NCBI GenBank assembly: GCA_963666425.2
Contig: OY762825.2
Location: 416,001 to 480,000 of the forward strand
Direction: 5' to 3'
DNA length: 64,000 nucleotides
From: Bacillota bacterium
GTDB taxonomy: Bacteria > Bacillota > JAAYKD01
Under the pieces are notes generated by a model. The model worked only from the letters and a program-made list of their open reading frames with translations. It made no database searches and was not told the origin of the DNA. Positions 19,300 to 53,191 of this stretch are shown here, one piece after another. Positions within the stretch are counted from its first letter, which is position 1; every line of letters begins with the position of its first letter. The position numbers were made by a program, and so were the translations under genes.

Positions 19300-19361
19300 T
19301 GTTCCAAGGGGACGGGGGTGTTGGCACAACTTTGTGCCAGGGGGACGGGGGTGTTGGCTCA
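19300..19361 (-). repeat. REP-1 tandem pair (19300-19328, 19333-19361)
   Basis: two G-strand copies with a 4-nt spacer; the last three bases are the RAYT stop codon. Confidence 0.95.
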
Positions 19362-20096
19362 CGACTCTTCGACTACTCTCCTCGATATCCCAGTAATTCT
19401 GGCTATTTGTCTGATAGAAAAATTACTTTTGGCTTTAATATTTCTAAGGATTCCGTCTCTGCTTGCTTTTGCAAAACCTTGAATTTCATCGATGTTATTC
19501 AAATGAGCAATTTTACACATTGCTTCTCTTGCTTCTAAATCGTTAAATTTGTTACTGGCAAGGTATTCTAAACAATTATCTTGATTGAGCTCATTATGAT
19601 AAGCAAGAAACTGATCTTTGGCCATCATACTGAACGCAAGGCTGACATCAACTATTTTTTGCTTCGAAAAATAGTCATTATAGCTGCTCCATTGATAATC
19701 GGAAACGTCTGCAACAATTCCCGCTTTCACCGGATTCTGATGAATGTAACGGATCACAGTCAATAAGTAGTGCATATTTTCAATGACCTCACTTTTAAAG
19801 CGATCCTGATACAAATGACCACATCTCTGATACTTTAAATTATACCAATGCACATAGCTTGCGCATATCTTGCGCATTGAGATGCCTAAATTATCATCCT
19901 TCATTAATAGATGAATATGGTTGCTCATTAAGCAATATCCAAGAAGTTCAAATTCGCGTTGCTCTTGATACAAAGCAAGTGTTTGCATAAACCTATCTTT
20001 GTCTTCGTCATCTTCAAAAATATCTTGATGATTAATACCACGAATCATAATATGATAGATCCCACTTTTACTTTTCTTTCTTGCTGTTCTTGGCAT
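19359..20096 (-). mobile_element. REP-associated tyrosine transposase (RAYT / Y1 HUH) with C-terminal HTH
   Basis: YHIMIRG, CLMSNHIHLL (HUH), GHLYQDRF, YIHQNPVKAG (catalytic Tyr), WSSY; flanked by inverted REP-1 copies; no tnpB. Confidence 0.93.
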
Positions 20097-20203
20097 TTTT
20101 ATTCACCTCAATTGCTGAGCCAGAAAAACGGGGATTAAAAACACACTCTGTTGATATACACATATTTTAACTGTTTTTATTATCTTTTACTCCGTTTAAA
20201 AAC

Positions 20204-20232
20204 AGTATACTCTATCATATTTCTTGTGTCAA
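20204..20232 (-). promoter_or_regulatory. sigma-A promoter of the RAYT gene
   Basis: TTGACA-17 nt-TATACT; the -10 overlaps one arm of a 10-bp inverted repeat. Confidence 0.75.
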
Positions 20233-20251
20233 TATCCTCGTTTCCTGATTC

Positions 20252-21118
20252 TTAAATCTTGTGCCAACACCCCCGTCCCCCTGGAACAATAGGAATCCAG
20301 AGTTCTATTTTGTTAGGTTGCAAACCATAAATTTCTATGGTATCCTGCGGTTCCAACTCATACCCTGAGCCCGGCAGCCACACGCCGTAAAACAGGCGAT
20401 ATGTTTCATTCAGTGGCCGCTTCTTTTCATCATGTACTATTTTAGCGTAGATAGCTGCTGGTATTTTTCTAATGACCAGATCTTCAGCATTCTGATTCCT
20501 ATCAATAATTTCCACAGCAAACAAATACTTAAAATCATCGTAATTGGTGATATTTGGAGCATATTCGCATATACCATACACAACATCAGTATTCGCAGCT
20601 GCTATATCTTTTTTTCGTTCTAGAAATTCAGCCCAATACTCCTCAATCGCAGATGAACCGGGTTTTACGATCCTTTCCAAACCCATCACCGAAAATTCAT
20701 TTCTCACAGCGATTTGCAGTTCAAAATCAAGTAAACGATCCGCTTTCTTTTGCCATTCTCTGATAAGATCGATCTTGTCAAACAAAACTGCATTCTTTCG
20801 TTGCTTTCTGAATCGACCTGGTGAAATTCCATATTCCCGGATAAATGCCCTGGTAAATACCTCCTGCGAATCAAAACCAAAATCACATCCGATGTCGATG
20901 ATCCTTTTTTCTGTCGTGCAAATTTCATATGCCGCATTGCTGATTCTTCTTTTTCGAATATATTCACCAATCGACATGCCAACCATGGCATCAAAAATTC
21001 TATAAAAATGCGTTTTTGAATAATAGGTCCGGCAGATTACTTCATCACAATCAATAACATCCTGTAAATGCTCTTCGATATAGTTGATAGAATCTTGCAT
21101 TCGCTCATAATAATTCAT
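20252..21118 (-). CDS. AraC family regulator with GyrI-like effector domain
   Basis: N-terminal double HTH (YIRKRR, FGFDSQEVFTRAF) and GyrI-like C-terminus; tail VPGGRGCWH is REP-encoded. Confidence 0.92.
   Translation of the reverse strand: MNYYERMQDSINYIEEHLQDVIDCDEVICRTYYSKTHFYRIFDAMVGMSIGEYIRKRRISNAAYEICTTEKRIIDIGCDFGFDSQEVFTRAFIREYGISPGRFRKQRKNAVLFDKIDLIREWQKKADRLLDFELQIAVRNEFSVMGLERIVKPGSSAIEEYWAEFLERKKDIAAANTDVVYGICEYAPNITNYDDFKYLFAVEIIDRNQNAEDLVIRKIPAAIYAKIVHDEKKRPLNETYRLFYGVWLPGSGYELEPQDTIEIYGLQPNKIELWIPIVPGGRGCWHKI
20260..20288 (+). repeat. REP-1 singlet inside the AraC gene 3' end
   Basis: TGTGCCAACACCCCCGTCCCCCTGGAACA. Confidence 0.95.
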
Positions 21119-21142
21119 ATCTGCCTCTTATAAACCTACTTT

Positions 21143-22261
21143 TTATGGACGACTTAGGTGATCCCAGAACCCATCGGGTGCTTCCTCGTCCAATAACTCA
21201 GCAGTAAATGTTTCTATCTGATTGGATGAAGCAAATTGGAACTTCCTCCATTGATTGATACTGGGAGTACCAAAACAAATATCTGCTTCTGCCTTGGTTG
21301 CATTGAAAATAATCGACCAAATTGTTCCCATTCCATTTCCATAGTAGTGACACCCGAGACCGTATGGCATAGGGTCAGAAAGGATTTTCTTAAGTTCGTT
21401 GAATCCGCGTTTACTCGCTGCATCCTGAAACCATTCTTTTAAAAATTCATAGCGAATCACGGAATGACGCGGTGTATATAATTTCATTTTGCTGATCGTT
21501 TCAGAGTTATAATGATTTGTCGCAAACAAATATTCTTCTTTGGCATCGCTTCCGGCCAGGATAATTTCATGAGTAGAAGCAGCGGCTTCAATTAAAGCCG
21601 CGTTTCCCTTTTTATCAATCACCATGATGTTCCTAAAGTCTGCAAACTTGATTTTCTGAAACAAGCTCACCGCTTCCTGAACCGTTTTACACTCATTCAG
21701 CAACGCTCTTACCACAACGGGAAACACAAATCCATCTTCAGAGTAATTTGGATGAATCGCGCCGGCGGAAGTGGTTACACATAATCCCTCCTCGTTCATC
21801 CCGTCAAAGCGGCCAAAAACCTGACAGCCAAACCCAATCTGTCGATATTGTCCCTGAATAGAAGATTCTATCAGAATCGGTTCCTCGCTTAAGCCGAAGT
21901 CGTAATTGCGCGCCAGATAGCAATTACCATCATCGCTCACAGAGGGTGTTAACGCTATTTGACTGCAATTACCCTGATTTAACTGTAGATACGCATAATA
22001 TAACGTCATATCCTCAGCCTTTGCACCAACAGCATCGGCAAATCCACAGATTTCCTCATTAATCCCCGGACAAAACCGATCATACAACTCTCTTGTTTTC
22101 TGAAATTGCCCATAGGTAAGCCGATTTCCTCCCATGAACGGCGTTGTCAGCTTTTTAATCAATGCTTGATCTCGTTTTAAAAATCTGCCGAGCTGTTGTC
22201 CTGCCTCATAAGGACTTCCTTCAATAACGCAGTGCCTAAATACCATTTTTCTGCTTTCCAT
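21143..22261 (-). CDS. C45 family peptidase / Ntn-hydrolase
   Basis: GNCSQ nucleophile site, ARNYD, DGMNEEGL and TNH motifs. Confidence 0.88.
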   Translation of the reverse strand: MESRKMVFRHCVIEGSPYEAGQQLGRFLKRDQALIKKLTTPFMGGNRLTYGQFQKTRELYDRFCPGINEEICGFADAVGAKAEDMTLYYAYLQLNQGNCSQIALTPSVSDDGNCYLARNYDFGLSEEPILIESSIQGQYRQIGFGCQVFGRFDGMNEEGLCVTTSAGAIHPNYSEDGFVFPVVVRALLNECKTVQEAVSLFQKIKFADFRNIMVIDKKGNAALIEAAASTHEIILAGSDAKEEYLFATNHYNSETISKMKLYTPRHSVIRYEFLKEWFQDAASKRGFNELKKILSDPMPYGLGCHYYGNGMGTIWSIIFNATKAEADICFGTPSINQWRKFQFASSNQIETFTAELLDEEAPDGFWDHLSRP

Positions 22262-22463
22262 TTATGAACCTCCCGTGCTATTTTCAGTGTATTTATCAAT
22301 AACTGACAGTATAGCAAATTGATAAATGGAAAGTTTGATGTTTTTTAACATGCGAGCTCAAAAAAGTTGGAGTAAATTTCTAGTTAAAGGGACGGAGGGT
22401 AGCAAGATCCTCTGATTAAACACATGTTTACTTTTAGTATACTGCTTTTCTCTATTGAAAAGC

Positions 22464-22492
22464 AGTATACTCTCTCCTATTTTCCATGTCAA
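22464..22492 (-). promoter_or_regulatory. sigma-A promoter, paralog of the RAYT promoter
   Basis: TTGACA-17 nt-TATACT; the -10 lies in a 15-bp perfect inverted repeat at 22436-22471. Confidence 0.7.
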
Positions 22493-22517
22493 TCTTCCAT
22501 TTTTTTGGATTTAATCT

Positions 22518-22559
22518 TGTGCCAACACCCCCGTCCCCCTGGCACGTCCCCCTGGCACA
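22518..22559 (+). repeat. REP-1 with internal 13-bp tandem duplication
   Basis: TGTGCCAACACCCC-(CGTCCCCCTGGCA)x2-CA; 1 nt from a stop codon. Confidence 0.95.
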
Positions 22560-22560
22560 T

Positions 22561-23172
22561 TTATTTTGTGAGCCTTCCAGTATAAGTGAAGCTGTCATCC
22601 GAGGTAATCTGAATTGAGTTGCTGGCAATTTCCGTTTCATCCTTATATGCTTTCAGCAATAGGGTGCATTTGCGAGCCATTGGTTCGTGATTTTCTGCCT
22701 GCATCGGCGTCCAATAAACCGTTTCGCCGGATTTTATTTCTAATTCCTTTCCTTGCGCCAGCACCCGCCCATCCGGTGACGTCCAGAGCAGCAGTTCTCC
22801 CTCACTCACTGTCAACAAAATGTAATCCGCTTGCGTGTATAATATTTTCAATGGGAAACCAGGCACACTGCTCATCGTCACTTGATATTTCCCGAGAGGA
22901 AACTCGACAGCGCGCTCGACAGAATAACTGCTGCCGTCGGCGGCATAGGCGGTAATCATGAATCCATTGGCTGTTCGATTTCCTAAATTTTGCAGCAATG
23001 GGATGCCGAAGATCATCACTGCTGCCAAGGCGCAGGTAACCGCAAGGGCAGATATTGCTTTCTTAAATGGGAAAAGCTGCTTTCGGCTGCTTTGTTTGGC
23101 ATGCCGGATGATTTCCTTTTTCTGTTCATCCCCCAGTTTTATTTCATTCATGCCGTTAATGTATTGATTCAT
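22561..23172 (-). CDS. putative anti-sigma factor (single TM)
   Basis: overlaps the ECF sigma gene; short N-terminus, one TM and an external domain. Confidence 0.6.
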   Translation of the reverse strand: MNQYINGMNEIKLGDEQKKEIIRHAKQSSRKQLFPFKKAISALAVTCALAAVMIFGIPLLQNLGNRTANGFMITAYAADGSSYSVERAVEFPLGKYQVTMSSVPGFPLKILYTQADYILLTVSEGELLLWTSPDGRVLAQGKELEIKSGETVYWTPMQAENHEPMARKCTLLLKAYKDETEIASNSIQITSDDSFTYTGRLTK

Positions 23173-23665
23173 TTGCTGCACCTCCGTTTATTTCCATTTT
23201 GAGCAATTCTCTTGCTCTTCTCAACTGAGTGCGAACCGTTGCCTCGTTCCTGTTTAATAATTGCGCTATTTCTGCAGTACTGTAGTTCTCAAAATAGTGT
23301 AAATAAATCACACTTCGATACTTGATGGGGAGAGCCAAAACCAGAGCGACTACTTCCCTGTTTTCTTTCTCTTGGATCGGTAAAACTGTTGTTTTCTCAT
23401 CCATTGGCAAGAAGAAATTCCTCCAACCACCCCTTAGGACATCTTTACAGGCGTTGATTGTCACCCGGATTATCCAAGCTTTTTCGTGTTCCAAATCTGT
23501 AAATACTCTGTTCTGTTCAAAAATCTTCATGAAGACATTTTGACAGACATCCTGTGCATCAGGCAGATTTCTCAGATAGGTTAAAGCAAGGCGCAATACC
23601 ATATCAGAATACCTTTGAACTAAATCCGAAATGTAATCGTCCGTACGCGACGATTCAATTTCCAT
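23156..23665 (-). CDS. ECF RNA polymerase sigma factor
   Basis: DAQDVCQNVF, KAWIIRVTIN and EIAQLL..TVRTQLRRAR. Confidence 0.92.
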   Translation of the reverse strand: MEIESSRTDDYISDLVQRYSDMVLRLALTYLRNLPDAQDVCQNVFMKIFEQNRVFTDLEHEKAWIIRVTINACKDVLRGGWRNFFLPMDEKTTVLPIQEKENREVVALVLALPIKYRSVIYLHYFENYSTAEIAQLLNRNEATVRTQLRRARELLKMEINGGAANESIH

Positions 23666-23811
23666 TCTGATCACGCTCCTCTCACCCATAACACGATTCA
23701 AAACAAGAAAATGTTTCACTCGGTAAATTTAATTTTTTATCTTTGTTACTTCAGCTTATCATCTATATTTTGCTTTTCAACCTGTTTTTTCCTGCAATCT
23801 GCACATTTTCT

Positions 23812-23840
23812 TGTGCCAAGGGGACGGGGGTGTTGGCACA
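23812..23840 (-). repeat. REP-1 singlet
   Basis: TGTGCCAAGGGGACGGGGGTGTTGGCACA, 3 nt upstream of a -35 box. Confidence 0.95.
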
Positions 23841-23843
23841 TGC

Positions 23844-23891
23844 TTGACAAACGAGCGGGCTGTCTTTATAATATGCCCCATAGGGGTATAT
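23844..23891 (+). promoter_or_regulatory. sigma-A promoter plus CsoR-type operator
   Basis: TTGACA-17 nt-TATAAT followed by ATATGCCCCATAGGGGTATAT (C-tract/G-tract palindrome typical of CsoR/RcnR sites). Confidence 0.85.
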
Positions 23892-23929
23892 GGCATCTTG
23901 TTCTATTTTTGGAAAGGCGGCGCTCTCTA

Positions 23930-25825
23930 ATGGGATTTATGAGAAAATTACGGGAAGAAGAATCGTTTCGCACGCTGTGTTTGACAATTTTGTCGGGAAT
24001 CTTTCTCTTGGCAAGCTTTTTTGGCTGGCTTTCGGATCTGCCTTTTGATCCGGCCTGGATCGCCATTCTGATCAGCGGAATTCCAATTGTATTTGGCGCT
24101 GTGCGGGGATTGGTCAAAGAATTTGATGTGACGGCCGATGTGCTGGTTGCAATTGCTCTGATTGCCGCTGTTTGGATTGGAGAATACTTTGCTGCCGGCG
24201 AAGTTGCTTTCATTATGCAATTAGGCAAGGTCCTTGAAGACGTCACTGCCGGAAAATCACATCAAAGCCTGCAGGCGCTGATCAATCTGACTCCGCAGAA
24301 AGCCTGTATCCGCACCGCAGAAGGTGAAAAAATCATTCTGGCCTCCGCAGTAAAAAGCGGCGACCTCATTTTAATCCGTCCCGGTGAATCCATCCCGGTG
24401 GACGGCAAGATTATTCACGGTAATACCGCCATCAATCAATCGGTGATGACCGGGGAATCCGTGCCGGTTGACCGCACAATCGGCGACGAAGTCTACCAAG
24501 GAACGATCAACCAGCAAGGTGCGATTGAAATTGAAGCCACTCAGGTTGGCGAGGATTCTTCACTGAAAAAGATGATTCATTTAGTAGAGGAAGCGGAAGA
24601 AAACAAAGCACCCATTGTGCGTATCGCGGATAAATGGGCACGCATTCTTGTCCCGGTTGCTCTGGGCTGCTCTCTGCTGATTTGGCTGCTCACCAAAGAT
24701 ATTTATCGCGCCGTGACGGCGCTCGTTGTCTTCTGTCCCTGTTCCCTGATCCTTGCCACTCCCACCGCGATGATGGCTGCCATCGGCAATGCAACCAAAA
24801 ATGGCATTCTAATCAAGTCCGGCGCAGCGGTGGAAGCCGTGGCAAAACTCGATACGCTGGTGATGGATAAAACCGGCACCTTAACCTACGGTAAACTGCA
24901 AGTGGAAGAGCTTCAGATTCTTGACTCGAAGCTGGAGCGCAATCGTTTTCTCGCTCTGATCGCCAGTGCAGAGAAATTCTCCGAGCATCCCTTGGCAAAA
25001 GCCATCCTAAACTATGCACAAAGTCAGGGTATCGTGGCAAAAGATCCCGGCAGTTTTGAAATGCAAGCAGGCAAAGGCGTTACCGCAATGGTAGATGGGC
25101 ACAGAATTTCACTTGGCGAAAAAATCATTGGCTCAGAACAGATCCAAAATCATCCTGTGGCAGCCCGGATGATTGAACAAATGCAAAAACAGGGTAAAAC
25201 TGTTTTACCCGTTCTCTGTGATGGAATAATCATCGGTATCATCTCCATCGCCGATACGCTCCGCAAAGAAGCGAAAAGCACCCTTGCCGAACTGAAACGC
25301 AGCGGCATTACGCGCATTGTTATGCTGACCGGCGATCATCAGGCTGTAGCCGACTTCATTGGAACTGCAGCTGGTGTCACCGATCTCTTTGCTTCCCAGT
25401 TACCGGAAGATAAAGTAAATTCCATTCGGCGCCTAACGCAGCAGGGGTATTCGGTCGGCATGGTCGGTGACGGCATTAATGATGCTCCTGCGCTTGCCAC
25501 CGCTTCTGTCGGCATTGTCATGGGAGCCATCGGTTCCGATGTAGCCTTGGAAGCCGCCGATATCGCTCTGATGGGCGACGACATCAGCAAACTGCCCTTT
25601 TTGATTCGGATCTGCCGCAAAACAAAAAGCCGGATCGTTTTCAACATCGTGATTTCCATGATTCTCAACTTTGGCGCCATCATTCTGGCAGGCTTTGGCT
25701 GGCTGACTCCTGTCACTGCGGCATTGGTTCATAATTTTGGCTCGGTCTTCGTCGTCATAAATTCCGCTTTACTGCTAACTTATCGGGAACCGGCTGCGCT
25801 CACTTCACCAATAACTACCGACTAA
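23930..25825 (+). CDS. heavy-metal P1B-type ATPase
   Basis: TGES, CPC, DKTGT, SEHP and GDGIND motifs; no N-terminal metal-binding domain; start moved to ATG 23930. Confidence 0.95.
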   Translation: MGFMRKLREEESFRTLCLTILSGIFLLASFFGWLSDLPFDPAWIAILISGIPIVFGAVRGLVKEFDVTADVLVAIALIAAVWIGEYFAAGEVAFIMQLGKVLEDVTAGKSHQSLQALINLTPQKACIRTAEGEKIILASAVKSGDLILIRPGESIPVDGKIIHGNTAINQSVMTGESVPVDRTIGDEVYQGTINQQGAIEIEATQVGEDSSLKKMIHLVEEAEENKAPIVRIADKWARILVPVALGCSLLIWLLTKDIYRAVTALVVFCPCSLILATPTAMMAAIGNATKNGILIKSGAAVEAVAKLDTLVMDKTGTLTYGKLQVEELQILDSKLERNRFLALIASAEKFSEHPLAKAILNYAQSQGIVAKDPGSFEMQAGKGVTAMVDGHRISLGEKIIGSEQIQNHPVAARMIEQMQKQGKTVLPVLCDGIIIGIISIADTLRKEAKSTLAELKRSGITRIVMLTGDHQAVADFIGTAAGVTDLFASQLPEDKVNSIRRLTQQGYSVGMVGDGINDAPALATASVGIVMGAIGSDVALEAADIALMGDDISKLPFLIRICRKTKSRIVFNIVISMILNFGAIILAGFGWLTPVTAALVHNFGSVFVVINSALLLTYREPAALTSPITTD

Positions 25826-25870
25826 ACACCGGTTCATCCCACAATCAGCGAAAAATGAGGAGGTCATATT

Positions 25871-26152
25871 ATGTCCGCACATCCCCATCACGATACCGAG
25901 AAACTCTGCCAACGGCTCAACCGAGTCGAAGGGCAGTTAGGCGGGATTCGCAAGATGCTTGAAAATGATAAACCCTGCGATGAAATTATCATCCAATTGA
26001 ATGCCGCTAAAGCAGCTTTACAGAAGGTCAGTCAGATTATTTTGGAAGATCATCTCGATCATTGTGTGATTGACGCGCTCCGCGATGGCAAAAGTGAAGT
26101 TCAGATTGATAGTTTAAAACGTGCGCTCAGCCAATATACCAAAATGGTCTAG
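25871..26152 (+). CDS. CsoR/RcnR family metal-sensing repressor
   Basis: RLNRVEGQ, C-DEIIIQ and HLDHC motifs. Confidence 0.93.
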   Translation: MSAHPHHDTEKLCQRLNRVEGQLGGIRKMLENDKPCDEIIIQLNAAKAALQKVSQIILEDHLDHCVIDALRDGKSEVQIDSLKRALSQYTKMV

Positions 26153-26160
26153 TAAAAGCT

Positions 26161-26189
26161 TGTGCCAACACCCCCGTCCCCTTGGCACA
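26161..26189 (+). repeat. REP-1 singlet
   Basis: exact consensus, 8 nt after the csoR stop. Confidence 0.95.
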
Positions 26190-26232
26190 CAAAAGCAGCA
26201 GGTCACATAAAAAAGTGACCTGCTGCCTTTTG
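26190..26232. terminator. bidirectional terminator
   Basis: GCAGCAGGTCAC-loop-GTGACCTGCTGC with A/T tails. Confidence 0.8.
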
Positions 26233-26242
26233 TTACTGCATT

Positions 26243-27058: not shown

Positions 27059-27288
27059 TTTATTAAATCTCCCCTCTCCCTAAATGCATTAAATGTGCTA
27101 AGAAGTCAACGCGTTATCCACCAAAGGATCTGACATGCCAATGATGAACGGAAAGCTAAGTTAACAGACAAAACAAAACAACCCATTACCGTTATCGGTG
27201 TGGTAGAATAAAAGCAGAATCGAAATTCGCAGCCAATAGTTGCCGGTTCAGGAAGCCCGCGTTTTGATAAATATGCAGGGAATTTGGA

Positions 27289-27972: not shown

Positions 27973-28094
27973 CCTTTTGCCAAAGCAATTTCGCTTGTGT
28001 TGGCAAAAGGGTAATAGAACAGGCTTGAAAAATAGATTTTCAACTTTTCAGGTTAATTATACCCTATTTTGAGCTGGTTTTAAAGATGATTTTA

Positions 28095-28156
28095 TGTACC
28101 AAGGGGACGGGGGTGTTGGCACAAGTTTGTGCCAACACCCCCGTCCCCTTGGTACA
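28095..28156. repeat. REPIN-like inverted REP-1 doublet
   Basis: perfect 29-bp arms, spacer AGTT; both outer ends carry the TGTACC variant. Confidence 0.95.
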
Positions 28157-28157
28157 G

Positions 28158-28823: not shown

Positions 28824-28838
28824 GAATTACAACCCTCT

Positions 28839-43884: not shown

Positions 43885-43906
43885 AGATCAATAACCTCAC
43901 TTGCTT

Positions 43907-45031: not shown

Positions 45032-45063
45032 TTTAGATCCTCCGCTTATTTTTTATTCTCTGA

Positions 45064-46029: not shown

Positions 46030-46112
46030 GGTTTGCTTCTCTCCGCTCTCATTAAAAAATTCTACCGCTTCTCCAATCGGCTGCTGAGCCGTTGTCGATC
46101 GTCTTTTCTAAT

Positions 46113-46970
46113 TCATTCCGGCAAAGCAATGGTTCCTTGCAAAACAACAACCGACTCTCCAATCAGCTGCACTCTCCCCTGCTCTACCAGCCTTAAGACG
46201 ATTTCTCCGCCCCTTTGCGAGGCCTGATAGGCTCTTAACCGATCCTTCTTGAGTAAACCTGCCCAATAAGGCGCCAGCAAAGTGTGCACGGAACCCGTAA
46301 CCGAATCTTCATCGACGCCTGCCCATGGATTAAAGTAGCGAGAAGTGAAATCGTAAGGGTCCTTCCCAAGACAAGTAACGGCCACCCCTTTTATTTTGCT
46401 GCAGTTTCCTTCTTTCATTCTTAAAAAATTTGGATCCAACTGAAGAACATCAGCCAGTGTTTTCAGATGAATCACCAGTTTATTCGTATTTTTACCCCAA
46501 AAAATCGTTTCATAGTGGGATATTCCCATTGCCTTCAATACTTCGAAGGGCGGATTCAGCCCGATTGGTTCATCACTTGGAAAATCAAGCAGAATACCCT
46601 CGCTGGATTTTTGGGCAGTAAGTTTGCCGCTTTTAGTTTCATAGAAAATTGTATCCCATTCAGCACCCAAATGATCAAACAAGACCTTAGAAACAGCAAG
46701 CGTGGCATGCCCGCATAATGCCACTTCTGTTTTTGGAGTAAACCATCTCAATTTGAATCGGTTAGAAGATAACCTTGCTGCGCCTTCGAACGGAAAAACA
46801 AAAGCTGTTTCAGCCAGATTCATCTCAGCGGCAATCAACTGCATGTTCCTTTCACTTATTTCTTTTTCCAAAACACAAACACCTGCAGGATTACCCCGAA
46901 ATGCTTCCTTTGTAAATGCATCAACCTGATAAAACGCTATCTGCATTTTAATCTTCTCCTCATTCGCCAT
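46113..46970 (-). CDS. PhzF family epimerase/isomerase
   Basis: VDAFT, GNPA, ETAF, LCGHAT and EDSVTGS. Confidence 0.93.
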   Translation of the reverse strand: MANEEKIKMQIAFYQVDAFTKEAFRGNPAGVCVLEKEISERNMQLIAAEMNLAETAFVFPFEGAARLSSNRFKLRWFTPKTEVALCGHATLAVSKVLFDHLGAEWDTIFYETKSGKLTAQKSSEGILLDFPSDEPIGLNPPFEVLKAMGISHYETIFWGKNTNKLVIHLKTLADVLQLDPNFLRMKEGNCSKIKGVAVTCLGKDPYDFTSRYFNPWAGVDEDSVTGSVHTLLAPYWAGLLKKDRLRAYQASQRGGEIVLRLVEQGRVQLIGESVVVLQGTIALPE

Positions 46971-46991
46971 ATCATGCACCGGAGCGACAAG

Positions 46992-47570
46992 TCAAATAAA
47001 AAATTGACGATCAGGATGTGCCAACACCCCCGTCCCCTTGGCACAAAAGAGGCTTTTACAATCCCGATTCAGTTTTTTAGCTTTTATTGTAATCAGCAGT
47101 TCTTCTGCGGCGGAAAGAAAGGCAATGCTGCCAAGGATGAGCAACGCAATCCGGCTGCCAAACACTACAATTAAAACCGGTATGGCGAAGAGCAACAACC
47201 CGGTTATTTTATTTAAGTAGGTATGCAAAGCAGAAAAGGTGTGATATTTGAAATAGCCGATGGCATACGCGGTCAGTCTTACGATCGCAATACTTCCTAC
47301 CCAGAACCAGATCCAACTCAGCAGTATTCTCTGCGAAACAATCACTATCGCAATCGCCGCCATAAACACAACATCCGCAATGCTGTCCAGTTTCGCTCCC
47401 AACTCACTCTCCTGCTTCAGGCTTCTTGCCGCAATGCCATCCAGTAAATCGCTGGCACCGGCTAAAGCATAAAAAATCCAAAAGCCTGTGGAAAACGGAT
47501 TGGCGTAAAGCAAGAGCAAAGCAAAAATCATGCGCGACACCGTAATTAAATTTGCCATGTTTCTCATCAT
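46992..47570 (-). CDS. CDP-alcohol phosphatidyltransferase family protein
   Basis: NLIT.SR and SDLLDGIAAR..GAKLDSIAD; tail from CAKGTG onward is REP read-through. Confidence 0.9.
   Translation of the reverse strand: MMRNMANLITVSRMIFALLLLYANPFSTGFWIFYALAGASDLLDGIAARSLKQESELGAKLDSIADVVFMAAIAIVIVSQRILLSWIWFWVGSIAIVRLTAYAIGYFKYHTFSALHTYLNKITGLLLFAIPVLIVVFGSRIALLILGSIAFLSAAEELLITIKAKKLNRDCKSLFCAKGTGVLAHPDRQFFI
47017..47045 (+). repeat. REP-1 singlet inside a gene 3' end
   Basis: exact consensus. Confidence 0.95.
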
Positions 47571-47627
47571 ACCACATCCTTAAAAAATATAACAGTTGCT
47601 TTTGCGCAATTAAATTCACCTTCGGGC

Positions 47628-47656
47628 TGTGCCAACACCCCCGTCCCCCTGGCACA
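47628..47656 (+). repeat. REP-1 singlet
   Basis: exact consensus, next to a terminator-like hairpin (47656-47701). Confidence 0.95.
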
Positions 47657-47736
47657 AAAAAACAGAGGCAGTAAGATTTTCATCTCATTACCTCTGTTAT
47701 TGTAGCACAATATGCTAATGCATGGAGCAGCGCAGT

Positions 47737-48600
47737 TTATTTTTTCTTTACCGGAATCCAAATTTCACTGTAATAATTTTCATCCTGATTTCCTTTTGGA
47801 TATTCTTCTGGGTTATCGTACATTTCAATATTATAACCTGCGGCAATTTCATACTCCTTGCAGTTGGGCAGCCATTCCGAGAAGATTTTTCCGTTTACCT
47901 CCTGCAGCGCTTTGGGCATGGCCCCCTTACAGGCAAAAACTACCCAAGTGTGCTTCGGGATGATTTTGGTGACAAAACCCGGCGGCACTTCGACGGATGG
48001 ATTGTAATTGTCCGCAATCAAATACTCAAATTGATCGGGACCCATGTTCTCATCTATGCACACACCATACATACCACAAACAATTTCGTTCTTTCCTGTT
48101 TGATAATGCTCTGTCCAAAACGCCGGAATCTCTGCTTTTGCAGCATCATAGGAAAACACCTTCGCTGCACCGATGACCGTAAAGGAATCCTTTTCTACAA
48201 TTTTGTAGTCCATGAGATAACCACCTTCCAATGTAAATTTGATTTTGAGAGGCGCAAAGGATTTTATCATGGCGCCCTCTTTCCTAACAGCCGTGGGGGT
48301 GACACTGTGAAAACGAGTGAACGCTTTGGTAAAGCTATCGGGTGAATCATAACCATATTTCAGAGCAATATCAATGATTTTTGCATCCGTAGCAACCAGC
48401 TCGCTGCCGGCAAGCGTGAGTCTGCGTTGTCTGATGTATTCACCAACCGTAAAACCGCAGAGCATGGCAAACCCTTTTTGAAAATAAAACGCCGAAACAA
48501 ATGCCCGTTTGGCAATGCTTTCTATGCTGAGTTCTTCGGTGATATTTTCTTCAATATAGTCGATCGCCTCGCCAATTCCTTCAATCCATCCCACCTTCAT
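47737..48600 (-). CDS. AraC family regulator with GyrI-like domain
   Basis: EYIRQRRLTLA, YGYDSPDSFTKAF and SEIWIPV. Confidence 0.93.
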   Translation of the reverse strand: MKVGWIEGIGEAIDYIEENITEELSIESIAKRAFVSAFYFQKGFAMLCGFTVGEYIRQRRLTLAGSELVATDAKIIDIALKYGYDSPDSFTKAFTRFHSVTPTAVRKEGAMIKSFAPLKIKFTLEGGYLMDYKIVEKDSFTVIGAAKVFSYDAAKAEIPAFWTEHYQTGKNEIVCGMYGVCIDENMGPDQFEYLIADNYNPSVEVPPGFVTKIIPKHTWVVFACKGAMPKALQEVNGKIFSEWLPNCKEYEIAAGYNIEMYDNPEEYPKGNQDENYYSEIWIPVKKK

Positions 48601-48673
48601 TACCTCCTCGCTGTGTTTTCATCTTATCAATTATTCTTCGCTCCTGCCCGACTTTTCCTGCTTTGTTTTGTCT

Positions 48674-48702
48674 TGTGCCAGGGGGACGGGGGTGTTGGCT
48701 CA
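48674..48702 (-). repeat. REP-1 singlet supplying the dinB stop codon
   Basis: identical to 19333-19361. Confidence 0.95.
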
Positions 48703-49944
48703 GTTGGGCTGCATACCGGGCATCAGCAGAATACTGCTGCTGTGCAGCGGCATTTTCAAATTACCCATTAAGGAAGCAGAGATCACCGAACGTTTGCCGT
48801 AGCGTTGACGCAGGATATCGATTGTTTCTTCCAATTTCATCTGACGGTCGTGTTTTTGGTAGTTGTTCAGCAGATCCAGCTGCAAAGGTTCTTCCTGAGG
48901 AATCAGGTTGATGACTCTGACCGTGACCGAGCGGATCGGCAACTGCCACTGATAATTCTCCTGAAAGAGGCTGCGGGCTTTGCAAGCGATTTCCATAATA
49001 CTCTGGCTGGGCATGGCCAGCGGCGCCTGATACTGTTTGACGGTCAGATCATTGCTGCGGGTGGTAATCTGCACGCCACAGGCCATCAGGGCATGCGTGC
49101 GCAGCTTATAGCCGATATCCTGCGACAATTCCAACATCACGTGCCAGACTTCCAGGCTGTTCTGCAAGTCTTCCACACAGGTAATGCCGTGCCCGATGGA
49201 TTTGATTTCCCTTCTGAAATCGCTTGGCTGTACCGAAGCATGATCGTCGCCGTTGGCAAAGCTCCAAATCTGGATGCCGTTGATGCCAAGCAGCTTGCGC
49301 AGCTTTTGCGGATCGGCCCTGGCCAGATCGCCAATGCTGCGAATCCCGATGGCAGCCAGTTTTACGGTGGTGGAACGGCCCACATAGAGCAAATCGCTGA
49401 CCGGCAGCGGCCACAGCTTTTCCCGAAAGTTTTCGATATCGACTACCGTGACGGCATCCGGCTTTTTCAAATCGCTGCCCAGTTTGGCAAAGACTTTATT
49501 AAACGAAACGCCAATGCTGACGGTCAAACCCAACTCATCTTTGACCAAATTGCGGATCCTCTCGGCAATTTCATAGCCTTCTGCAAAATCGGCACAAATC
49601 TTGCTGACATCCAGCCAGCATTCATCCATGCCATAGGGTTCCACCCGTTCGGTAAAGCGGCCGTAAATTTCCCGCACCGCTTTGGATGCTTTGACAAATT
49701 CATTGTAATTGGGCGGCAGCAGAATCACTTCCGGGCAGAGGCGTTTGGCCTGCCAGTTGGCCATGCCGGTTTTAATACCGGCTTCCTTGGCCAATTGGGA
49801 TTTGGCCAGCACAATGCCATGGCGATCGTCGGCACAGCCGCAGACTGCCACTGCTTTGCCCCTGAGAGAGGGGTCGAGCATGCAGGCAACCGAAGCGTAA
49901 AAGGCGTTCAGATCGCTGTGTAAAATGATGCGGTCGCTCTTCAT
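48700..49944 (-). CDS. dinB: Y-family DNA polymerase IV
   Basis: HSDLNAFYASV, YGMDECWLD and AKLGSDLKKPD. Confidence 0.93.
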   Translation of the reverse strand: MKSDRIILHSDLNAFYASVACMLDPSLRGKAVAVCGCADDRHGIVLAKSQLAKEAGIKTGMANWQAKRLCPEVILLPPNYNEFVKASKAVREIYGRFTERVEPYGMDECWLDVSKICADFAEGYEIAERIRNLVKDELGLTVSIGVSFNKVFAKLGSDLKKPDAVTVVDIENFREKLWPLPVSDLLYVGRSTTVKLAAIGIRSIGDLARADPQKLRKLLGINGIQIWSFANGDDHASVQPSDFRREIKSIGHGITCVEDLQNSLEVWHVMLELSQDIGYKLRTHALMACGVQITTRSNDLTVKQYQAPLAMPSQSIMEIACKARSLFQENYQWQLPIRSVTVRVINLIPQEEPLQLDLLNNYQKHDRQMKLEETIDILRQRYGKRSVISASLMGNLKMPLHSSSILLMPGMQPN

Positions 49945-49959
49945 GCAAAAGACCTCCTT

Positions 49960-50170
49960 TCCAGGAAGTAGGCGTGTGACGGAAGTTTATAGAAGTTATC
50001 CCTTCTTCATCTTAGCAATAGAAAGAAATTTTGTCAAGGAAGTTCAGTAATAAATTGCGCAGTTTTCTTCTCTTTTTTCACTTGACAAGCCGTATTTCAT
50101 GAAGTATAATGAAATTAACTTCTATATACTTCATTTTATATTTGCAGTTACACGAAGTCGAAAACTTCTA
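49960..50170. promoter_or_regulatory. divergent sigma-A promoters with repeated GAAGT/ACTTC sites
   Basis: + strand TTGACA(50082)-17-TATAAT(50105); - strand TTGACA(50037)-17-TAAGAT(50014); about 9 GAAGT/ACTTC pentamers. Confidence 0.7.
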
Positions 50171-50192
50171 TATGCCATAAGGAGGATGAATC

Positions 50193-50630
50193 ATGCAACG
50201 CTTTGCAGAGAAACTCAAAGCCGCCCGCGCCGAAGCCGATCTTAGCCAAGCCGCCCTGGCCGAACAGGTAGATGTCTCCATTCGCTCCATTTCCGCCTAT
50301 GAAACGGGTATGGCCATTCCGCGCGGCTCCACCATGCGCAAGCTGGCCCACGCCCTGGCTGTTTCCCTGGAATACCTGACCAACGACGAAGTGACCGACC
50401 CCAAAGCCGGCATGGCGAAAGAAATTGTGCTGGAAGATATTCGCGGCCGCTACGGCAGCAAAGGCGTCGCCGAAGCAGACATGCTGCTGCAGCGCAATCG
50501 GGCTCTCTTCGCCGGCGGTGTGCTGACCCAGGACGCCAAAGACGCTTTCTTCCAGGCCGTGATGACGGCCTATGTCACCTGTAAAGAAGAAGCCAAAGAA
50601 ACCTTCGGACACAAGAAAGATGAGGAATAG
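50193..50630 (+). CDS. XRE family HTH repressor
   Basis: LSQAALAEQVDVS.RSISAYETG. Confidence 0.92.
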   Translation: MQRFAEKLKAARAEADLSQAALAEQVDVSIRSISAYETGMAIPRGSTMRKLAHALAVSLEYLTNDEVTDPKAGMAKEIVLEDIRGRYGSKGVAEADMLLQRNRALFAGGVLTQDAKDAFFQAVMTAYVTCKEEAKETFGHKKDEE

Positions 50631-50635
50631 ATACC

Positions 50636-51166
50636 ATGTCTATCTCCACAATCAGCCAGGAAGTTCGTAAGATTCTCAGCAAATACGATGAAAGCAATAT
50701 CTATCGCCTCTGCCGCGCCATGAAAATTACCGTGCTGCTCTCCCCCATGGGCGAATTTACCGGTGCCTGCAAGGGATTCTATCTCAGCCAATCGCGCAGG
50801 CAGGTGATTATGGTCAACAGCAATTTGCCGGAAGATCTGCAGAGAATCATTGTCGCGCACGAATTGGGCCATGCCGTGCTGCATCGACGCTTAACCGGCA
50901 TTAAAGCCTTCCACGATTTTGAAATGTTTGATGAAACATCGCAGTTTGAATTTGAAGCCAATATTTTTGCCGCCGATCTGTTGATGCCGGACGAAGACGT
51001 TTTGGCCCTGCTGAACGACGATATCTCTTTCTTCACTGCCGCCAATCAGCTGCAAGTCCCGGCGGAATTGTTGGATTTTAAATTCCGCGTTTTAAAACGC
51101 AAAGGATTTCAGGTCATCGATCCGCCCATGACAGCCAATTCCGATTTTTTAAAGAGGGTGAGGTGA
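50636..51166 (+). CDS. ImmA/IrrE family metallopeptidase
   Basis: AHELGHA and E.EAN.FAA.LLMP. Confidence 0.92.
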   Translation: MSISTISQEVRKILSKYDESNIYRLCRAMKITVLLSPMGEFTGACKGFYLSQSRRQVIMVNSNLPEDLQRIIVAHELGHAVLHRRLTGIKAFHDFEMFDETSQFEFEANIFAADLLMPDEDVLALLNDDISFFTAANQLQVPAELLDFKFRVLKRKGFQVIDPPMTANSDFLKRVR

Positions 51167-51447
51167 ATAGAATGGAAAATCCAGCCAAAGTCTATGTCAG
51201 CGTGACCGCTTCCTTTGATCCGGAAGGCATGCTGCTGCCGCAGGTCATCACCTGGGAAGACGGCACGCAGTATCTAATCGACCGGATTCTCGATATCCGC
51301 CCCTCGTATGCCGCCAAAGCCGGCGGCCAGGGGGATCGTTATATGGTGCGTTTGGGCGATCATTACAGCTATCTTTTCTTTGAACGCAGCGCCGCCCTCC
51401 AGGGCAACCAGCTTGGCCGTTGGTTTGTTGAACGCAAACAAGCATAA
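51163..51447 (+). CDS. conserved hypothetical protein of the dinB module
   Basis: KVYV.V.A.F, P..ITWEDG, KAGGQGDRY and WFVE; overlaps the immA stop. Confidence 0.7.
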   Translation: MNRMENPAKVYVSVTASFDPEGMLLPQVITWEDGTQYLIDRILDIRPSYAAKAGGQGDRYMVRLGDHYSYLFFERSAALQGNQLGRWFVERKQA

Positions 51448-51501
51448 AAAAGGCAAAAACGGCGAGCCCCAGCCTCGCCCGCCTGAAAGGAGTGCTTCCC
51501 C

Positions 51502-52101
51502 TTGTGCGGTAGATATTATGTGGAACCAGAAGAAAATGAAGCCGAAATGCAGCGGATCCTGGCAGACCTGAACCGCCGTTATCCCGATTCCAAACTGCTG
51601 CCGCTGATGCGCTTGGGTGATATTTTACCCTCTCAAATTGCCCCGGTCATGGCCAACAGTAAAAGCCTGACGGCGCGGCCTTTCCTGATGAAGTGGGGTT
51701 ATGCCGAAGGCGAGCGCCCCCTGATCATCAACGCCCGCAGCGAGAGCGCTTTGGAAAAGCCAATGTTTCGCGAGAGTATGCAGACGCGGCGCTGCCTGAT
51801 TCCGGCGAATCGCTACTTTGAATGGCAGAAAACGCCCGAAGCCAAACTAAAATACTGCATCGCCCCGGACGAACAGCCCGTATTTTATATGGCAGGAATT
51901 TATCGTCTGGAGCCCAATCGGGAACTACCGGCTTTTGTTATTCTCACCTGTGATGCAGCGGAAGAAATTAAATTCATCCATCCCCGCATGCCGGTCATTT
52001 TACCCAGAGAGCAGCTGGTTGCCTGGCTGAATCCTGCTGCCGATGTGCAAAGTATCCTGGCGGCCGCGCGCAGCAAAATGATCTATCAAAAGAGTTCGTA
52101 A
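51502..52101 (+). CDS. SOS response-associated peptidase (SRAP/HMCES family)
   Basis: MCGRY N-terminus, INARSE, RRCLIPA..YFEW and IHPRMPVIL. Confidence 0.95.
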   Translation: MCGRYYVEPEENEAEMQRILADLNRRYPDSKLLPLMRLGDILPSQIAPVMANSKSLTARPFLMKWGYAEGERPLIINARSESALEKPMFRESMQTRRCLIPANRYFEWQKTPEAKLKYCIAPDEQPVFYMAGIYRLEPNRELPAFVILTCDAAEEIKFIHPRMPVILPREQLVAWLNPAADVQSILAAARSKMIYQKSS

Positions 52102-52370
52102 AATAAAAGCAACGAAACGGTTGCTGCAAAATGTTTCTGGTGCACTGCTTCGTCGCCTTCTACCCATCAATTACGTCAACATCTTATTATCACATTTTAC
52201 CTTCGTTGCTTCGTCGTCTCTCAACTCAACAATTACGTTAACATCTTATCTTCACATTTTACCAAATGTAGGGAACGGTCTTGACCGTTCCGCCGTCCTT
52301 CGTCACCTCCGTCTTCCGCCGTTCCCTCGCCTCTTCGCTTCCTCCGTCTCTTAACACAATATGCAATAAT

Positions 52371-52420
52371 AAAGCACTATATCCTCGCCGGAATCGTCTT
52401 CCCGCAGAATATAGTGCTTT
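52371..52420. repeat. 50-nt hairpin repeat (also at 52975-53024 and 63731-63779)
   Basis: AAAGCACTATAT..ATATAGTGCTTT with a conserved interior. Confidence 0.85.
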
Positions 52421-52458
52421 TGTTCTACTCGCTATAGTGTTTCCCACTCAAATCAATC

Positions 52459-52487
52459 TGTGCCAACACCCCCGTCCCCTTGGCACA
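52459..52487 (+). repeat. REP-1 singlet
   Basis: exact consensus. Confidence 0.95.
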
Positions 52488-53063
52488 ACGATTACGTCAA
52501 CATCCTATCATCACATTTTCTCTTCGTTGCTTCGTCGTCTCTCAACTCAACAATTACGTTAACATCTTATCTTCACATTTTACCAAATGTAGGGAACGGT
52601 CTTGACCGTTCCGCCGTCCCTTCGTTCCTCGTTTCTTTCGTCCTATCGTCTTTCATCGTCCCCTCCCGCCATGCCCCATCGTCTCTCAACCCATCAATTA
52701 CGTCAACATCTTATCTTCACATTTTCCCTTCGTTGCCCCATCGTCTCTCAACCCATCAATTACGCCAACATCTTATCTTCACATTTTACCAAATGTAGGG
52801 AACGGTCTTGACCGTTCCGCCGTCCCCCGTCACCTCCGTCTTCCCCCGTTCCTTATCCGTTCTCCATCTCCCGCCGTCCTTCGTCACCTCCATCTCCCGC
52901 CGTCCCCCGTCACTGCCGTCACCTCCTCCATCCCATTGTTTTTCCTCACCTCTTAACACAATATGCCAACAAAAAAAGCACTATATCCTCGCCGGAATCG
53001 TCTTCCCGCAGAATATAGTGCTTTTCTTATGCCACTTGACAATGCTTTAAATTCACATCAAGC

Positions 53064-53191
53064 TGTGCCAACACCCCCGTCCCTCTGGAACAAAGCTGTG
53101 CCAACACCCCCGTCCCTCTGGAACAAAACTGTGCCAACACCCCCGTCCCCCTGGAACGTAGTTGTGCCAACACCCCCGTCCCCTTGGCACA
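53064..53191 (+). repeat. REP-1 tandem tetramer, 33-bp period
   Basis: copies at 53064, 53097, 53130 and 53163; spacers AAGC, AAAC and TAGT; ends 1 nt from a stop codon. Confidence 0.95.

Follow-up and report, generated by a model that had tools for sequence, protein, structure and literature searches.

The question raised by the locus described here is whether a chromosomal transposase, together with the short repeats that accompany it, takes part in the turnover of the accessory genes around it. The locus lies in a 64-kb stretch of the genome of a Bacillota bacterium, positions 416001-480000 of contig C1 in the source assembly (G000); this whole stretch is called the window, and coordinates refer to it unless a contig name precedes them. 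It contains a gene for a domesticated REP-associated tyrosine transposase (RAYT; REP, repetitive extragenic palindrome) and numerous copies of a 29-bp sequence, R (TGTGCCAACACCCCCGTCCCCYTGGCACA), counted at three mismatches or fewer. The host role of RAYTs is an open question, and the group to which this protein is assigned below (group 1, or subclass 2.1) is the least understood. An earlier note on the window had considered R as an attC-like recombination site, RAYT as its recombinase, and the whole as an analogue of an integron. From the comparison of sequences, an even chance is given here to another idea, which can be tested: the outer end of R may be a transposase-type junction where neighbouring modules of accessory genes turn over. 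This idea is built on the anatomy of the locus, the clustering of R, the anchors shared between two species, the polarity of the R sites, and the purifying selection acting on RAYT.

The transposase and its repeat

The open reading frame (ORF) at 19359-20096, on the minus strand, encodes an intact Y1 transposase of 245 amino acids. It matches the Pfam family Y1_Tnp (PF01797) over residues 12-121 (E 1e-11), and its sole sequence relative in the PDB is the E. coli TnpA_REP (4ER8, E 3e-5). Past the core the protein runs on for 124 residues, with weak helix-turn-helix (HTH) matches at 216-242 (HTH_11, E 0.029; HTH_23, E 0.1). The HUH motif reads H-I-H, in ...SNHIHLL..., while the motif Y-I-H-Q-N-P aligns as YIHQNP with YIYINP of 4ER8, is kept in the same-genus genome G001, and contains the class-2 signature Y---NP, to which the catalytic Tyr belongs (PMC6006769). 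The NCBIfam model NF047646, "REP-associated tyrosine transposase", gives 78.1 bits, below its cut-off of 80; this is a near miss because the model spans the 146-aa core only. Inverted copies of R flank the gene, here as well as in G001. Two tandem copies at 19300-19361 (both minus), the 3′ terminal inverted repeat (TIR) of the RAYT unit, lie over its TGA stop, which is supplied by the inner copy, a TGAGCC variant; the 5′ TIR at 20260-20288 (plus) lies 164 nt upstream of the start codon, and a promoter-like site TTGACA-17-TATACT (20204-20232, minus) is placed 28 nt inside it. These data bear out the intact, repeat-flanked HUH transposase of the earlier note. The stretch of the RAYT gene (19362-20259) has a GC content of 0.344, that of the window being 0.457. 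C1 contains one RAYT, of which the strain-variant contig C8 holds a 99% allele, and a second, distant Y1_Tnp match is found on C1 at 533 kb. Comparison with the G001 ortholog (85% amino-acid identity, dS 0.83) yields a ratio of non-synonymous to synonymous substitution (dN/dS) of 0.10; RAYT is therefore under purifying selection.

Of 401 genomes of the phylum, 118 encode homologs of RAYT, frequently several per genome, and in relatives from other Bacillota they are flanked by hairpins of like design with GGGGAC(A/G)G loops. R carries GGGGACGG, which agrees with the motif GGGGWSAS at 7 of its 8 positions, and the repeats of the relatives carry GGGGACAG, a full fit. Analogous repeats number 33 in one of these genomes (G345, over 16 contigs) and four in another (G205, all adjoining its RAYT). 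Judged by its features against published descriptions, the protein is taken as a group-1, subclass-2.1 RAYT (a TIRYT) and R as its TIR. The available parts of the literature present TIRYT genes as RAYT-like and flanked by inverted repeats with GGGGWSAS, some of these repeats occurring in dimers or clusters (Di Nocera et al., 2013, PMC3733652). The TIRYTs are identified with subclass 2.1 of TnpA_REP, whose members are long, have an HTH-like domain at the C-terminus, and had no REP-like sequences near their genes (Quentin et al., 2018, PMC6006769), and RAYT group 1 corresponds to subclass 2.1, is also present in Clostridia, and is accompanied by low-abundance 16-mers only (Bertels et al., 2017, PMC5581495). 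The likeness to a TIRYT, or TIRtron, includes the long RAYT-like Y1 protein of 245 residues with its C-terminal extension, the inverted flanking repeats whose GGGGWSAS-like motif differs at one of eight positions, and the presence of TIR copies elsewhere as singles, dimers, and clusters. There are also differences. The TIR studied here is itself a family of about 100 copies that form hairpins in part, whereas Quentin et al. found no REP-like sequences near subclass 2.1 genes (PMC6006769); and presence/absence modules, polarity, and cross-species anchors, all three found here, are missing from the published TIRYT accounts in the parts available. The full-text literature searched, supplementary member lists aside, contained no report tying the repeats of group-1 RAYTs or TIRYTs to presence/absence gene modules. 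The TIRYT/TIR family is a known kind, and the link of R to variable modules appears to be new.

The window contains 23 copies of R at 15 loci, and none of 100 shuffled sequences gave any match. The first copy is at 19300, the first 19.3 kb being free of them, and between 19300 and 53191 there are 22 copies at 14 loci, the 23rd lying outside at 63820-63848; the counts of the earlier note are thereby reproduced. The copies occur singly, in tandem, or as REPIN-like inverted doublets (a REPIN being a pair of inverted REPs), and only 10 of the 23 have the exact palindromic consensus. This consensus folds into a hairpin whose stem has 8 bp and whose loop has 13 nt (-6.4 kcal/mol, z -3.4), and the inverted doublets form perfect 29-bp stems (-42.8 kcal/mol, z -11.9). 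At 10 of the 15 loci R overlaps, sits within, or is at most 8 nt from the 3′ end of an ORF, or at 11, the figure given in the earlier note, if one includes the locus at 22518, which only a 13-nt duplication has moved out to a distance of 14 nt.

The assembly amounts to 3.21 Mb in 18 contigs, of which C1 has 2.9 Mb, with a completeness of 98.5% and a contamination of 6.85%. Its small contigs C2, C4, C8, C16, and C17 are 95-99% variants of C1 regions, which indicates a second strain in the assembly, and four of the five overlap R clusters; the other small contigs have GC contents of 0.22-0.63 and are possibly contamination. Genome-wide there are 103 copies of R at 81 loci, 84 copies at 65 loci being on C1 and the rest on C4, C8, C16, and C17. 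Mapping of the repeat over the genome, proposed in the earlier note as a check on clustering, showed the C1 loci to be strongly clumped: 47 of the 65 fall within three regions that make up 6.8% of C1 (0-62 kb, 435-485 kb, and 2,817-2,903 kb), and 18 of 30 bins of 100 kb are empty, with a variance-to-mean ratio of 10. From the GC skew and the DnaA boxes, the origin of replication can be put close to 1.66 Mb and the terminus close to 0.2 Mb, so that all three large clusters are situated toward the terminus. C1 has 14 doublets in the minus-plus arrangement, and in 11 of them (manual count) both arms carry the same 3′ variant, as expected if doublets spread as units. Among 41 genomes searched (genus, family, order, and a sample of the phylum), R was present only in G000 and G001.

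Repeat sites as borders of variable DNA

The nearly whole genome of G001 (74 contigs) was aligned to C1, which resulted in 366 one-to-one high-scoring segment pairs (HSPs) covering 1.92 Mb, 66% of C1, at 88% identity. Segments called G000-only or absent from G001 differ in presence, with neither gain nor loss implied; the relatives other than G001 that were searched had neither R nor alignable DNA. G001 has 27 copies of R, of which 16 are in the stretch syntenic with the window. Nine indels were resolved in the window. Three of them have R at both breaks: 20289-23832 (AraC and C45 genes, anti-sigma and ECF, extracytoplasmic function, sigma genes), missing in contiguous G001 contigs; 26190-30829 (DUF4037, DUF2461, and a DUF4386-ABC-GntR group), in whose place G001 has 762 bp of other DNA; and 47046-48673 (CDP-alcohol transferase and AraC genes), missing in G001. 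Two more have R at one break, namely 17963-19296, with an amidohydrolase gene, and 53192-63730, with a giant adhesin-like gene. In these five events the junctions are at the outer (3′) nucleotide of R. The G001-aligned fraction of the successive inter-repeat segments is 1.0, 0, 0, 1.0, 0, 0, 0.57, 0, 0.45, 0, 0, 0.95, 0.93, 0.01, and 1.0. The segments are mostly all-or-none, and the cassette-like division put forward in the earlier note holds in that most of them are present or absent as wholes. G000-only segments have a GC content of 0.40-0.445, and those common to G001 of 0.49-0.51.

Over the whole of C1, 45 of the 65 loci have both flanks specific to G000, 17 are on an edge between conserved and specific DNA, and three are inside alignments with R present in G001. 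None of the 65 is a simple insertion of R into G001-conserved DNA, against a baseline of 46% of random intergenic C1 positions with both flanks aligned to G001. These two figures, together with the clustering, reject the scenario that the earlier note had set against its own reading, in which the repeats are evenly spread and no breakpoints fall on them.

Many of the repeats are anchors shared between the two species. At 16 of 20 G001 loci, the best G000 match of one flank is within 25 nt of a G000 copy of R, a few of these matches being in a paralogous flank family for which orthology is uncertain. The R copies are old, with many anchors common to species at about 88% nucleotide identity; the sites are older than the split of species about 12% apart in their DNA, while the adjacent DNA differs. 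Five of the 11 HSPs of at least 94% identity are within 2.5 kb of R, and contig C17 of the minor strain matches the DNA beside one G001 anchor at 98% identity; both findings point to recent exchange around the anchors. The copy at 47017 has identical borders in both species and an inverted centre.

The sites are polar. In all ten edge loci with a single orientation and clean flanks (aligned fractions 1.0 vs 0.0), the DNA on the 5′ side of R is conserved and that on the 3′ side is variable; three edge loci of opposite polarity have partly aligned, paralogous 5′ flanks, and one is at a G001 contig end. On the 5′ flank of R there are a weak consensus (..A.TC) and conserved flank families, one of 11 copies with a median length of 311 nt and another of about 80-170 nt in a second array on C1 described below; the 3′ flank has neither. 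The 190 nt upstream of the C45 operon are a homolog of the TIR, promoter, and 5′ untranslated region of RAYT. The promoters noticed earlier just inside the repeats are confirmed as far as consensus matches go, the four best promoter-like hits between 19000 and 32000 lying 4-45 nt from R. Two properties of these sites appear to be new: R and its inner 5′ DNA, often a promoter, a leader, and then genes, make up a stable unit, and the 3′ end of R is a recurrent junction where the adjoining block is gained, lost, or replaced, usually just after its stop codon. A cassette made of a gene with its repeat is not supported, as R travels with the 5′-side DNA, promoter and leader included, and not with the gene whose stop codon it adjoins; any unit would consist of repeat, promoter, and genes.

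Of the 65 C1 loci, 25 have a stop codon between -8 and +10 nt of their edge (7.0 ± 2.6 at random intergenic positions, with a maximum of 15 in 300 trials), and the polarity, a stop followed by the G-rich strand, is the same in 22 of 26 cases. Complements of stop codons come right after R in 10 of 79 copies, over a background of about 5%, which is too weak to explain the adjacency. At 39 of 51 loci of uniform orientation, the G-rich strand is on the lagging-strand template, a bias of the kind that would be expected for transposases acting on single-stranded DNA. Since gene direction follows replication, the polarity of stop adjacency and the strand bias are inseparable.

The minor strain offers a second comparison. 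Between C4 and C1 two junctions adjoin R, and an R-ended C1 segment truncates a gene that is intact in C4. Inspection by eye showed an AbiEi/AbiEii-like pair that is whole in C4:1136-2972, the second gene being cut after about 13 codons in C1:2845937-2846588 by an R-ended segment. Two AAA-ATPase genes of about 407 aa, each behind R and the flank of about 311 nt, are in opposite order in C1:480206-484095 and C17:13699-16991; G001 is without one of these genes between the two R copies, and the flanks there are 97.5-98.4% identical to G000.

Explanations for the turnover at the repeats

The mechanism envisaged for the outer end of R, on which opinion is evenly balanced, is the following. RAYT would treat R as a transposon end, nicking and rejoining single-stranded DNA at the outer end of R on the lagging-strand template. 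Such ends may become hot spots for joining to foreign DNA, for outward deletions of adjacent DNA, and for exchange between two R ends; repeated over time, such events would have produced the array-like layout. Nicking and joining at R as an end would explain most of the observations, namely the polarity, the exact junctions, the one-sided events, which would be adjacent deletions or one-ended joins, the exchanges involving two ends, and the strand bias.

Several results limit this mechanism or weigh against it. The commonest single-copy variant, which ends in ...CTGGAACA (e.g., at 20260), is unfolded (z -0.5); the hairpin repeat of the earlier note stands for the consensus and the doublets and fails for this variant. 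A consensus target site at the outer end of R was looked for and not found. The expectation that gene changes break at repeats holds for five of the nine window indels and not for the other four, at 1257-16412, 36020-39886, and 45131-46078, and as a 363-bp insert in G001 at 31872. Genome-wide, 309 of 322 junctions of at least 200 bp are without R, which is within 30 nt of 13 and at both edges in 5; R therefore marks a minority of gene-content changes. The polarity could partly reflect selection that keeps R by promoters, and the stop-codon counts rest on gene calls from a crude ORF caller. In the minor strain, R is at the junction of one strain and missing at that of the other in the comparison of C4 with C1, and C16 and C17 have many breakpoints away from R. 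Second copies of 3′-flank modules were not found within the genome besides the allelic strain contigs. The contigs of G001 often end in R, so that part of the DNA called G000-specific may be unassembled and only events inside contigs are safe. In four public sequencing runs, of 12 found, the contigs assembled over 17001-37000 break at every R, and their joints all lie in or beside R, with a shorter arm of at most 33 letters, except for two strand-switch joints in which it measures 59 and 113; joints this short in contigs broken at R say nothing on excision, and circles, empty sites, and cleavage are not seen at the read level.

A different explanation, which we regard as improbable though the least so of the alternatives, is that R is passive: spread by RAYT, it would survive in dispensable DNA only, selection excluding it from core DNA, and the indels would stop at R on account of replication slippage, hairpin cleavage, or homology-facilitated illegitimate recombination promoted by short identical repeats and long palindromes, RAYT having no part in the turnover. 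Accessory regions tolerate repeats, and the doublets are perfect 29-bp palindromes, long palindromes being described as unstable in the available text of PMC3733652. Slippage-like duplications of 13 nt are polymorphic at R, and an IS1182-like element is found in R twice, which makes R a target or a fragile spot for other machinery. Nevertheless, such processes are symmetric and do not predict the ten-of-ten polarity, nor junctions at the outer nucleotide rather than inside R, nor the strand bias between replichores. Slippage cannot delete DNA between inverted bracketing copies, and the conservation of 16 of 20 anchors across species also argues against passivity.

The integron analogue proposed in the earlier note seems a little less probable still, and we regard it as doubtful. 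In its present form, R with its leader or promoter and the genes that follow would be excised by RAYT as a single-stranded circle and re-inserted at the outer end of another R by site-specific strand transfer between the two R sites, giving a dedicated gene-capture platform without a tyrosine integrase, whose arrays would grow and be shuffled in this way. Support comes from the second array (C1 2,853,835-2,899,078), where 18 consecutive single copies of R, or 21 if counted from 2,817,941, are all on the minus strand. The genes of this array are on the plus strand, small, and unrelated (CMD, APH-like, two HAD, NUDIX, GNAT, P-loop kinases, and PNPOx), and many of their stop codons adjoin the next R. 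Of all parts of the genome, this array most resembles an integron, and it is known from G000 alone, as G001 covers 5% of the 2,850-2,900 kb bin that contains most of it. A conserved stretch of about 80-170 nt lies downstream of the reverse complement of R in at least seven copies in C1:2852001-2872000, before unrelated genes. A T-box leader was the sole Rfam match in the window, and C1 2,852-2,872 kb had none at E up to 0.1; the conserved leaders adjoining R are not known RNA families. That R travels with conserved leaders beside unrelated genes is also in favour of the analogue, as are the different contents between the same anchors in C1, the minor strain, and G001, the lower GC content of G000-only segments, and the replacement at 26190-30829, which requires at least one gain.

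Classical integrons have attC sites that are imperfect palindromes of about 55-140 bp with paired core sites in an R′′/L′′-L′/R′ layout, and their cassettes are mostly promoterless, in one orientation, and read from a common promoter; to our knowledge, they are rare or absent in this phylum. The arrays resemble integrons, or clusters of attC sites lacking integrases (CALINs), in the runs of unrelated small accessory genes in one orientation, in the short repeat right after stop codons, and in the differing content between the same sites of related genomes. They depart from them in the size of R (29 bp) and the absence of that layout, in the lack of an IntI-type recombinase near the arrays, in the association of R with the downstream promoter side rather than with the upstream ORF, and in the many modules with promoters and regulators of their own, a single orientation being confined to the second array. 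Matches to the tyrosine recombinase family PF00589 were found on C1 solely at 2.137 and 1.501 Mb, far from every R cluster, which suits an analogue without such an enzyme. A true integron is discarded, as there is neither a nearby tyrosine recombinase nor a site of attC-like size or fold.

The evidence against excision and re-insertion is of several kinds. The genome has no relocated module, and the run contigs, which break at every R, contain neither a circle nor an empty site. The two events with R at one break have another edge without R, for which an adjacent deletion is simpler, and bracketing repeats are often inverted (plus ... minus), with the sites on different strands. To this must be added the small share of junctions marked by R. 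Most single copies are poor hairpins, and the claim of attC-like folded sites does not fit them. What persists of the integron reading is a RAYT with its cognate repeat and the clustering; what does not is the resemblance to typical cassettes, the modules having their own promoters and regulators. We consider it similarly doubtful that a cassette platform builds the one-orientation arrays and exchanges units between species in an integron-like manner without a tyrosine integrase.

Finally, that the module differences are an artefact of breaks or mis-joins at R is very improbable: the contigs of G001 and of the public runs do tend to stop at R, and G000 combines 6.85% contamination with extra strain-variant contigs, but the five events with R at a break lie inside long G001 contigs (158 kb; 19.7 kb) and are bordered on either side by unique sequence, R (29-62 bp) is below the usual final k-mers, C1 extends over 2.9 Mb, and the independent run X10 reproduces the C1 modules, one of its contigs spanning the copy at 23812.

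The system described here may also be set against the known relatives of RAYT. Like the REPIN-RAYT systems of Pseudomonas and Enterobacteria (Bertels and Rainey), as far as the sources available describe them, it has one RAYT gene that is vertically kept and under purifying selection, inverted doublets with the same variant in both arms, and long persistence at orthologous sites. It differs from them in that neither R nor its flank consensus contains GTAG, in having about 100 copies instead of hundreds, clustered rather than spread over extragenic space, and in its many solo copies tied to longer conserved flanks. With the IS200/IS605 insertion sequences it has in common a Y1 HUH enzyme, ends recognised by sequence or structure, cleavage at the outer border (described for IS200/IS605), and a lagging-strand bias; unlike these elements, the system here does not consist of many identical copies, has one repeat, inverted, at both ends, and encodes a longer protein (PMC6006769). 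Moreover, the cargo here differs at each copy, and there is no target consensus. An IS200/IS605 insertion sequence, with near-identical copies, distinct LE and RE hairpins, and a fixed target, is discarded on the grounds of the single-copy gene, the identity of both ends, and the lack of a target consensus. IS91/ISCR elements and Helitrons encode Y2 rolling-circle transposases, have distinct ori and ter ends, and capture adjacent genes by one-ended events. The likeness consists of an HUH enzyme that may mobilise a single end plus neighbouring DNA, which would explain solo R copies with leader and cargo as well as the one-sided events, although there is no sign of rolling-circle replication here. 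A subclass-2.1 TnpA_REP was proposed to diversify the neighbouring prochlorosin (procA) genes of picocyanobacteria, and the same authors later stated that there was no strong evidence for or against causality (bioRxiv 10.1101/2020.03.09.984088, as available in part). That case is similar in the group of the enzyme and in a neighbour-gene diversification proposed from genome layout alone, and different in that it concerns one gene family and many transposase copies, whereas here there are one RAYT, about 100 repeats, and unrelated genes. The CGTC-tagged REP family was also considered for R and rejected; R has a central CGTC, and its layout does not fit the 8-9-bp stem after the tag and the CCA tail given in the accessible part of PMC3733652.

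The edge polarity, the anchors in two species, the promoter-leader copied with R, and the strand bias between replichores are hard to obtain by chance. If RAYT is found to make the joints, it would represent a new enzyme class among the few systems that assemble gene arrays, and it would account for some of the plasticity of genomes among Gram-positive anaerobes. Failing such a finding, R is still a repeat family confined to variable DNA, and as such bears on models of REPINs as evenly spread, neutral or beneficial residents.

Genes of the window and minor observations

All the accessory families named in the earlier note were recovered. The R copy of the 5′ TIR (20260-20288) lies within the 3′ end of an AraC/GyrI-like ORF, and its 3′ end is the left break of the 3.5-kb segment missing in G001. 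This segment comprises an AraC-GyrI-like regulator with a C45/AAT-family hydrolase (20252-22261, minus; GC 0.40), the leader of the C45 operon (22262-22517, minus, with a promoter-like site at 22464-22492), which is homologous to the TIR-proximal promoter and 5′ untranslated region of RAYT, R with the strain-polymorphic 13-nt partial duplication CGTCCCCCTGGCA (22518-22558, plus), and a putative anti-sigma gene (no Pfam match) with an ECF sigma factor gene (22561-23719, minus), both absent from G001. Its right break is the R at 23812-23840 (minus), whose 5′ side is directed toward the promoter of a P-type metal ATPase gene; the latter and a CsoR-type repressor gene (23844-26152, plus) have a 12/12 promoter-like site at 23844-23872 and are present in G001 at 88% identity. 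Eight nucleotides past the CsoR stop, R at 26161-26189 (plus) is the left break of the 4.6-kb segment replaced in G001. In this segment there are DUF4037 (minus) and DUF2461 (plus) genes (26243-27972, not in G001), a REPIN-like inverted doublet (minus-plus, 28095-28156) 1 nt from the DUF4386 stop, and the genes for GntR, an ABC ATPase, a 261-aa ORF, and DUF4386 (28158-30702, minus, not in G001), with a promoter-like site at 30725-30753.

The inverted doublet at 30798-30859 (minus-plus) is an anchor conserved in G001, and its CTCA variant is the stop codon of a PNPOx-like gene. A repeat-free block of 10 kb follows (30857-41013, minus), mostly common to G001, with genes for the PNPOx-like (Nim-like) protein, an Imm5-like protein, an M20 peptidase, a T-box-led amino-acid ABC transporter, a MalT/LuxR-type regulator of 888 aa, and a GNAT protein. 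The T-box leader upstream of the transporter operon is at 35721-35969 (minus; Rfam RF00230, 122 bits), and the region of the 888-aa gene (36020-39886) is not in G001, with edges free of R. A single AraC-family gene (41165-42058, minus) is enclosed by two minus-plus doublets, one at 41096-41157, 7 nt from the AraC stop, and the other at 42131-42192, 3 nt from the stop of the neighbouring ORF. Genes for Fe-S dicluster-like, EEP nuclease-like, radical-SAM-like, kinase-like, and PhzF proteins occupy 42196-46979 (minus), with parts that match G001 at 96-97% identity; G001 lacks the kinase-like gene (45131-46078), whose edges are also without R.

The R at 47017-47045 (plus) is within the 3′ end of a CDP-alcohol phosphatidyltransferase-like ORF (46992-47570, minus), whose portion 47046-47570 is not in G001. 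Next come R at 47628-47656 (plus), an AraC/Rob-like gene (47737-48600, minus, not in G001), and R at 48674-48702 (minus), a TGAGCC variant that is the stop codon of a DinB-like gene and the right break of the 1.6-kb G000-only segment. The genes for the Y-family polymerase/DinB (minus) and for an XRE HTH protein, an IrrE-like M78 peptidase, a 94-aa ORF, and SRAP (all plus) fill 48700-52101 and are in G001 at 93%. The R at 52459-52487 (plus) is in a non-coding, repeat-rich stretch, and four tandem copies with a period of 33 (53064-53191, plus), preceded by the flank common to 11 copies, end a single nucleotide away from the stop codon of the giant gene. The latter encodes an adhesin-like surface protein of 3383 aa (53193-63344, minus) and is not in G001, where other DNA of about 8.6 kb takes its place; the last R of the window (63820-63848, plus) lies 475 nt upstream of it. 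A gene of 3634 aa at C1:337764-349492 is flanked by R in the same way; these 11.7 kb are represented in G001 by one R copy and a gap of 4 bp.

With respect to the wider distribution of R, the flanks of the G001 locus C2:1908-1987 map to C1:2902252 and C1:4104, at both ends of C1, which is therefore probably circular; G000 is about 4.4 kb longer there, starting at R. A scan of metagenomes yielded 11 short contigs with R (1.1-2.5 kb), most of them collinear with C1 at 97-99.7%; they added a single further event, the insertion of an IS into R in L148 described below. The viral contigs searched for R gave no match, the phage records gave one protein match of 23.5% identity, and the plasmid records gave only matches to conserved ATPase domains; nothing in these records marks the region as a known plasmid or phage.

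Partial duplications of 13-15 nt that begin at the CGTC of R are found at 22532-22558 and at C1:1287, C1:798188, C8:8572, and C17:13911. They are polymorphic: C1 has the one at 22532, which C8 and run X10 lack, and C8 has one that is missing in C1. The IS1182-like element (520-aa transposase, by eye) is inserted in the central CGTC of R in the metagenome contig L148:122-1805, with CGTC on both sides, and the same end adjoins a partial R at C1:599770; the element seems to target R. A second short hairpin repeat (GGAACGGTC..GACCGTTCC) occurs in non-coding DNA upstream of the tandem R, at 52264-52299, 52586-52620, and 52795-52825. It may belong to the second Y1_Tnp match (C1:533030-533401), and it has many matches in G001 at 88-100% identity, some of them at a regular spacing of 72 nt (G001 contig C5).

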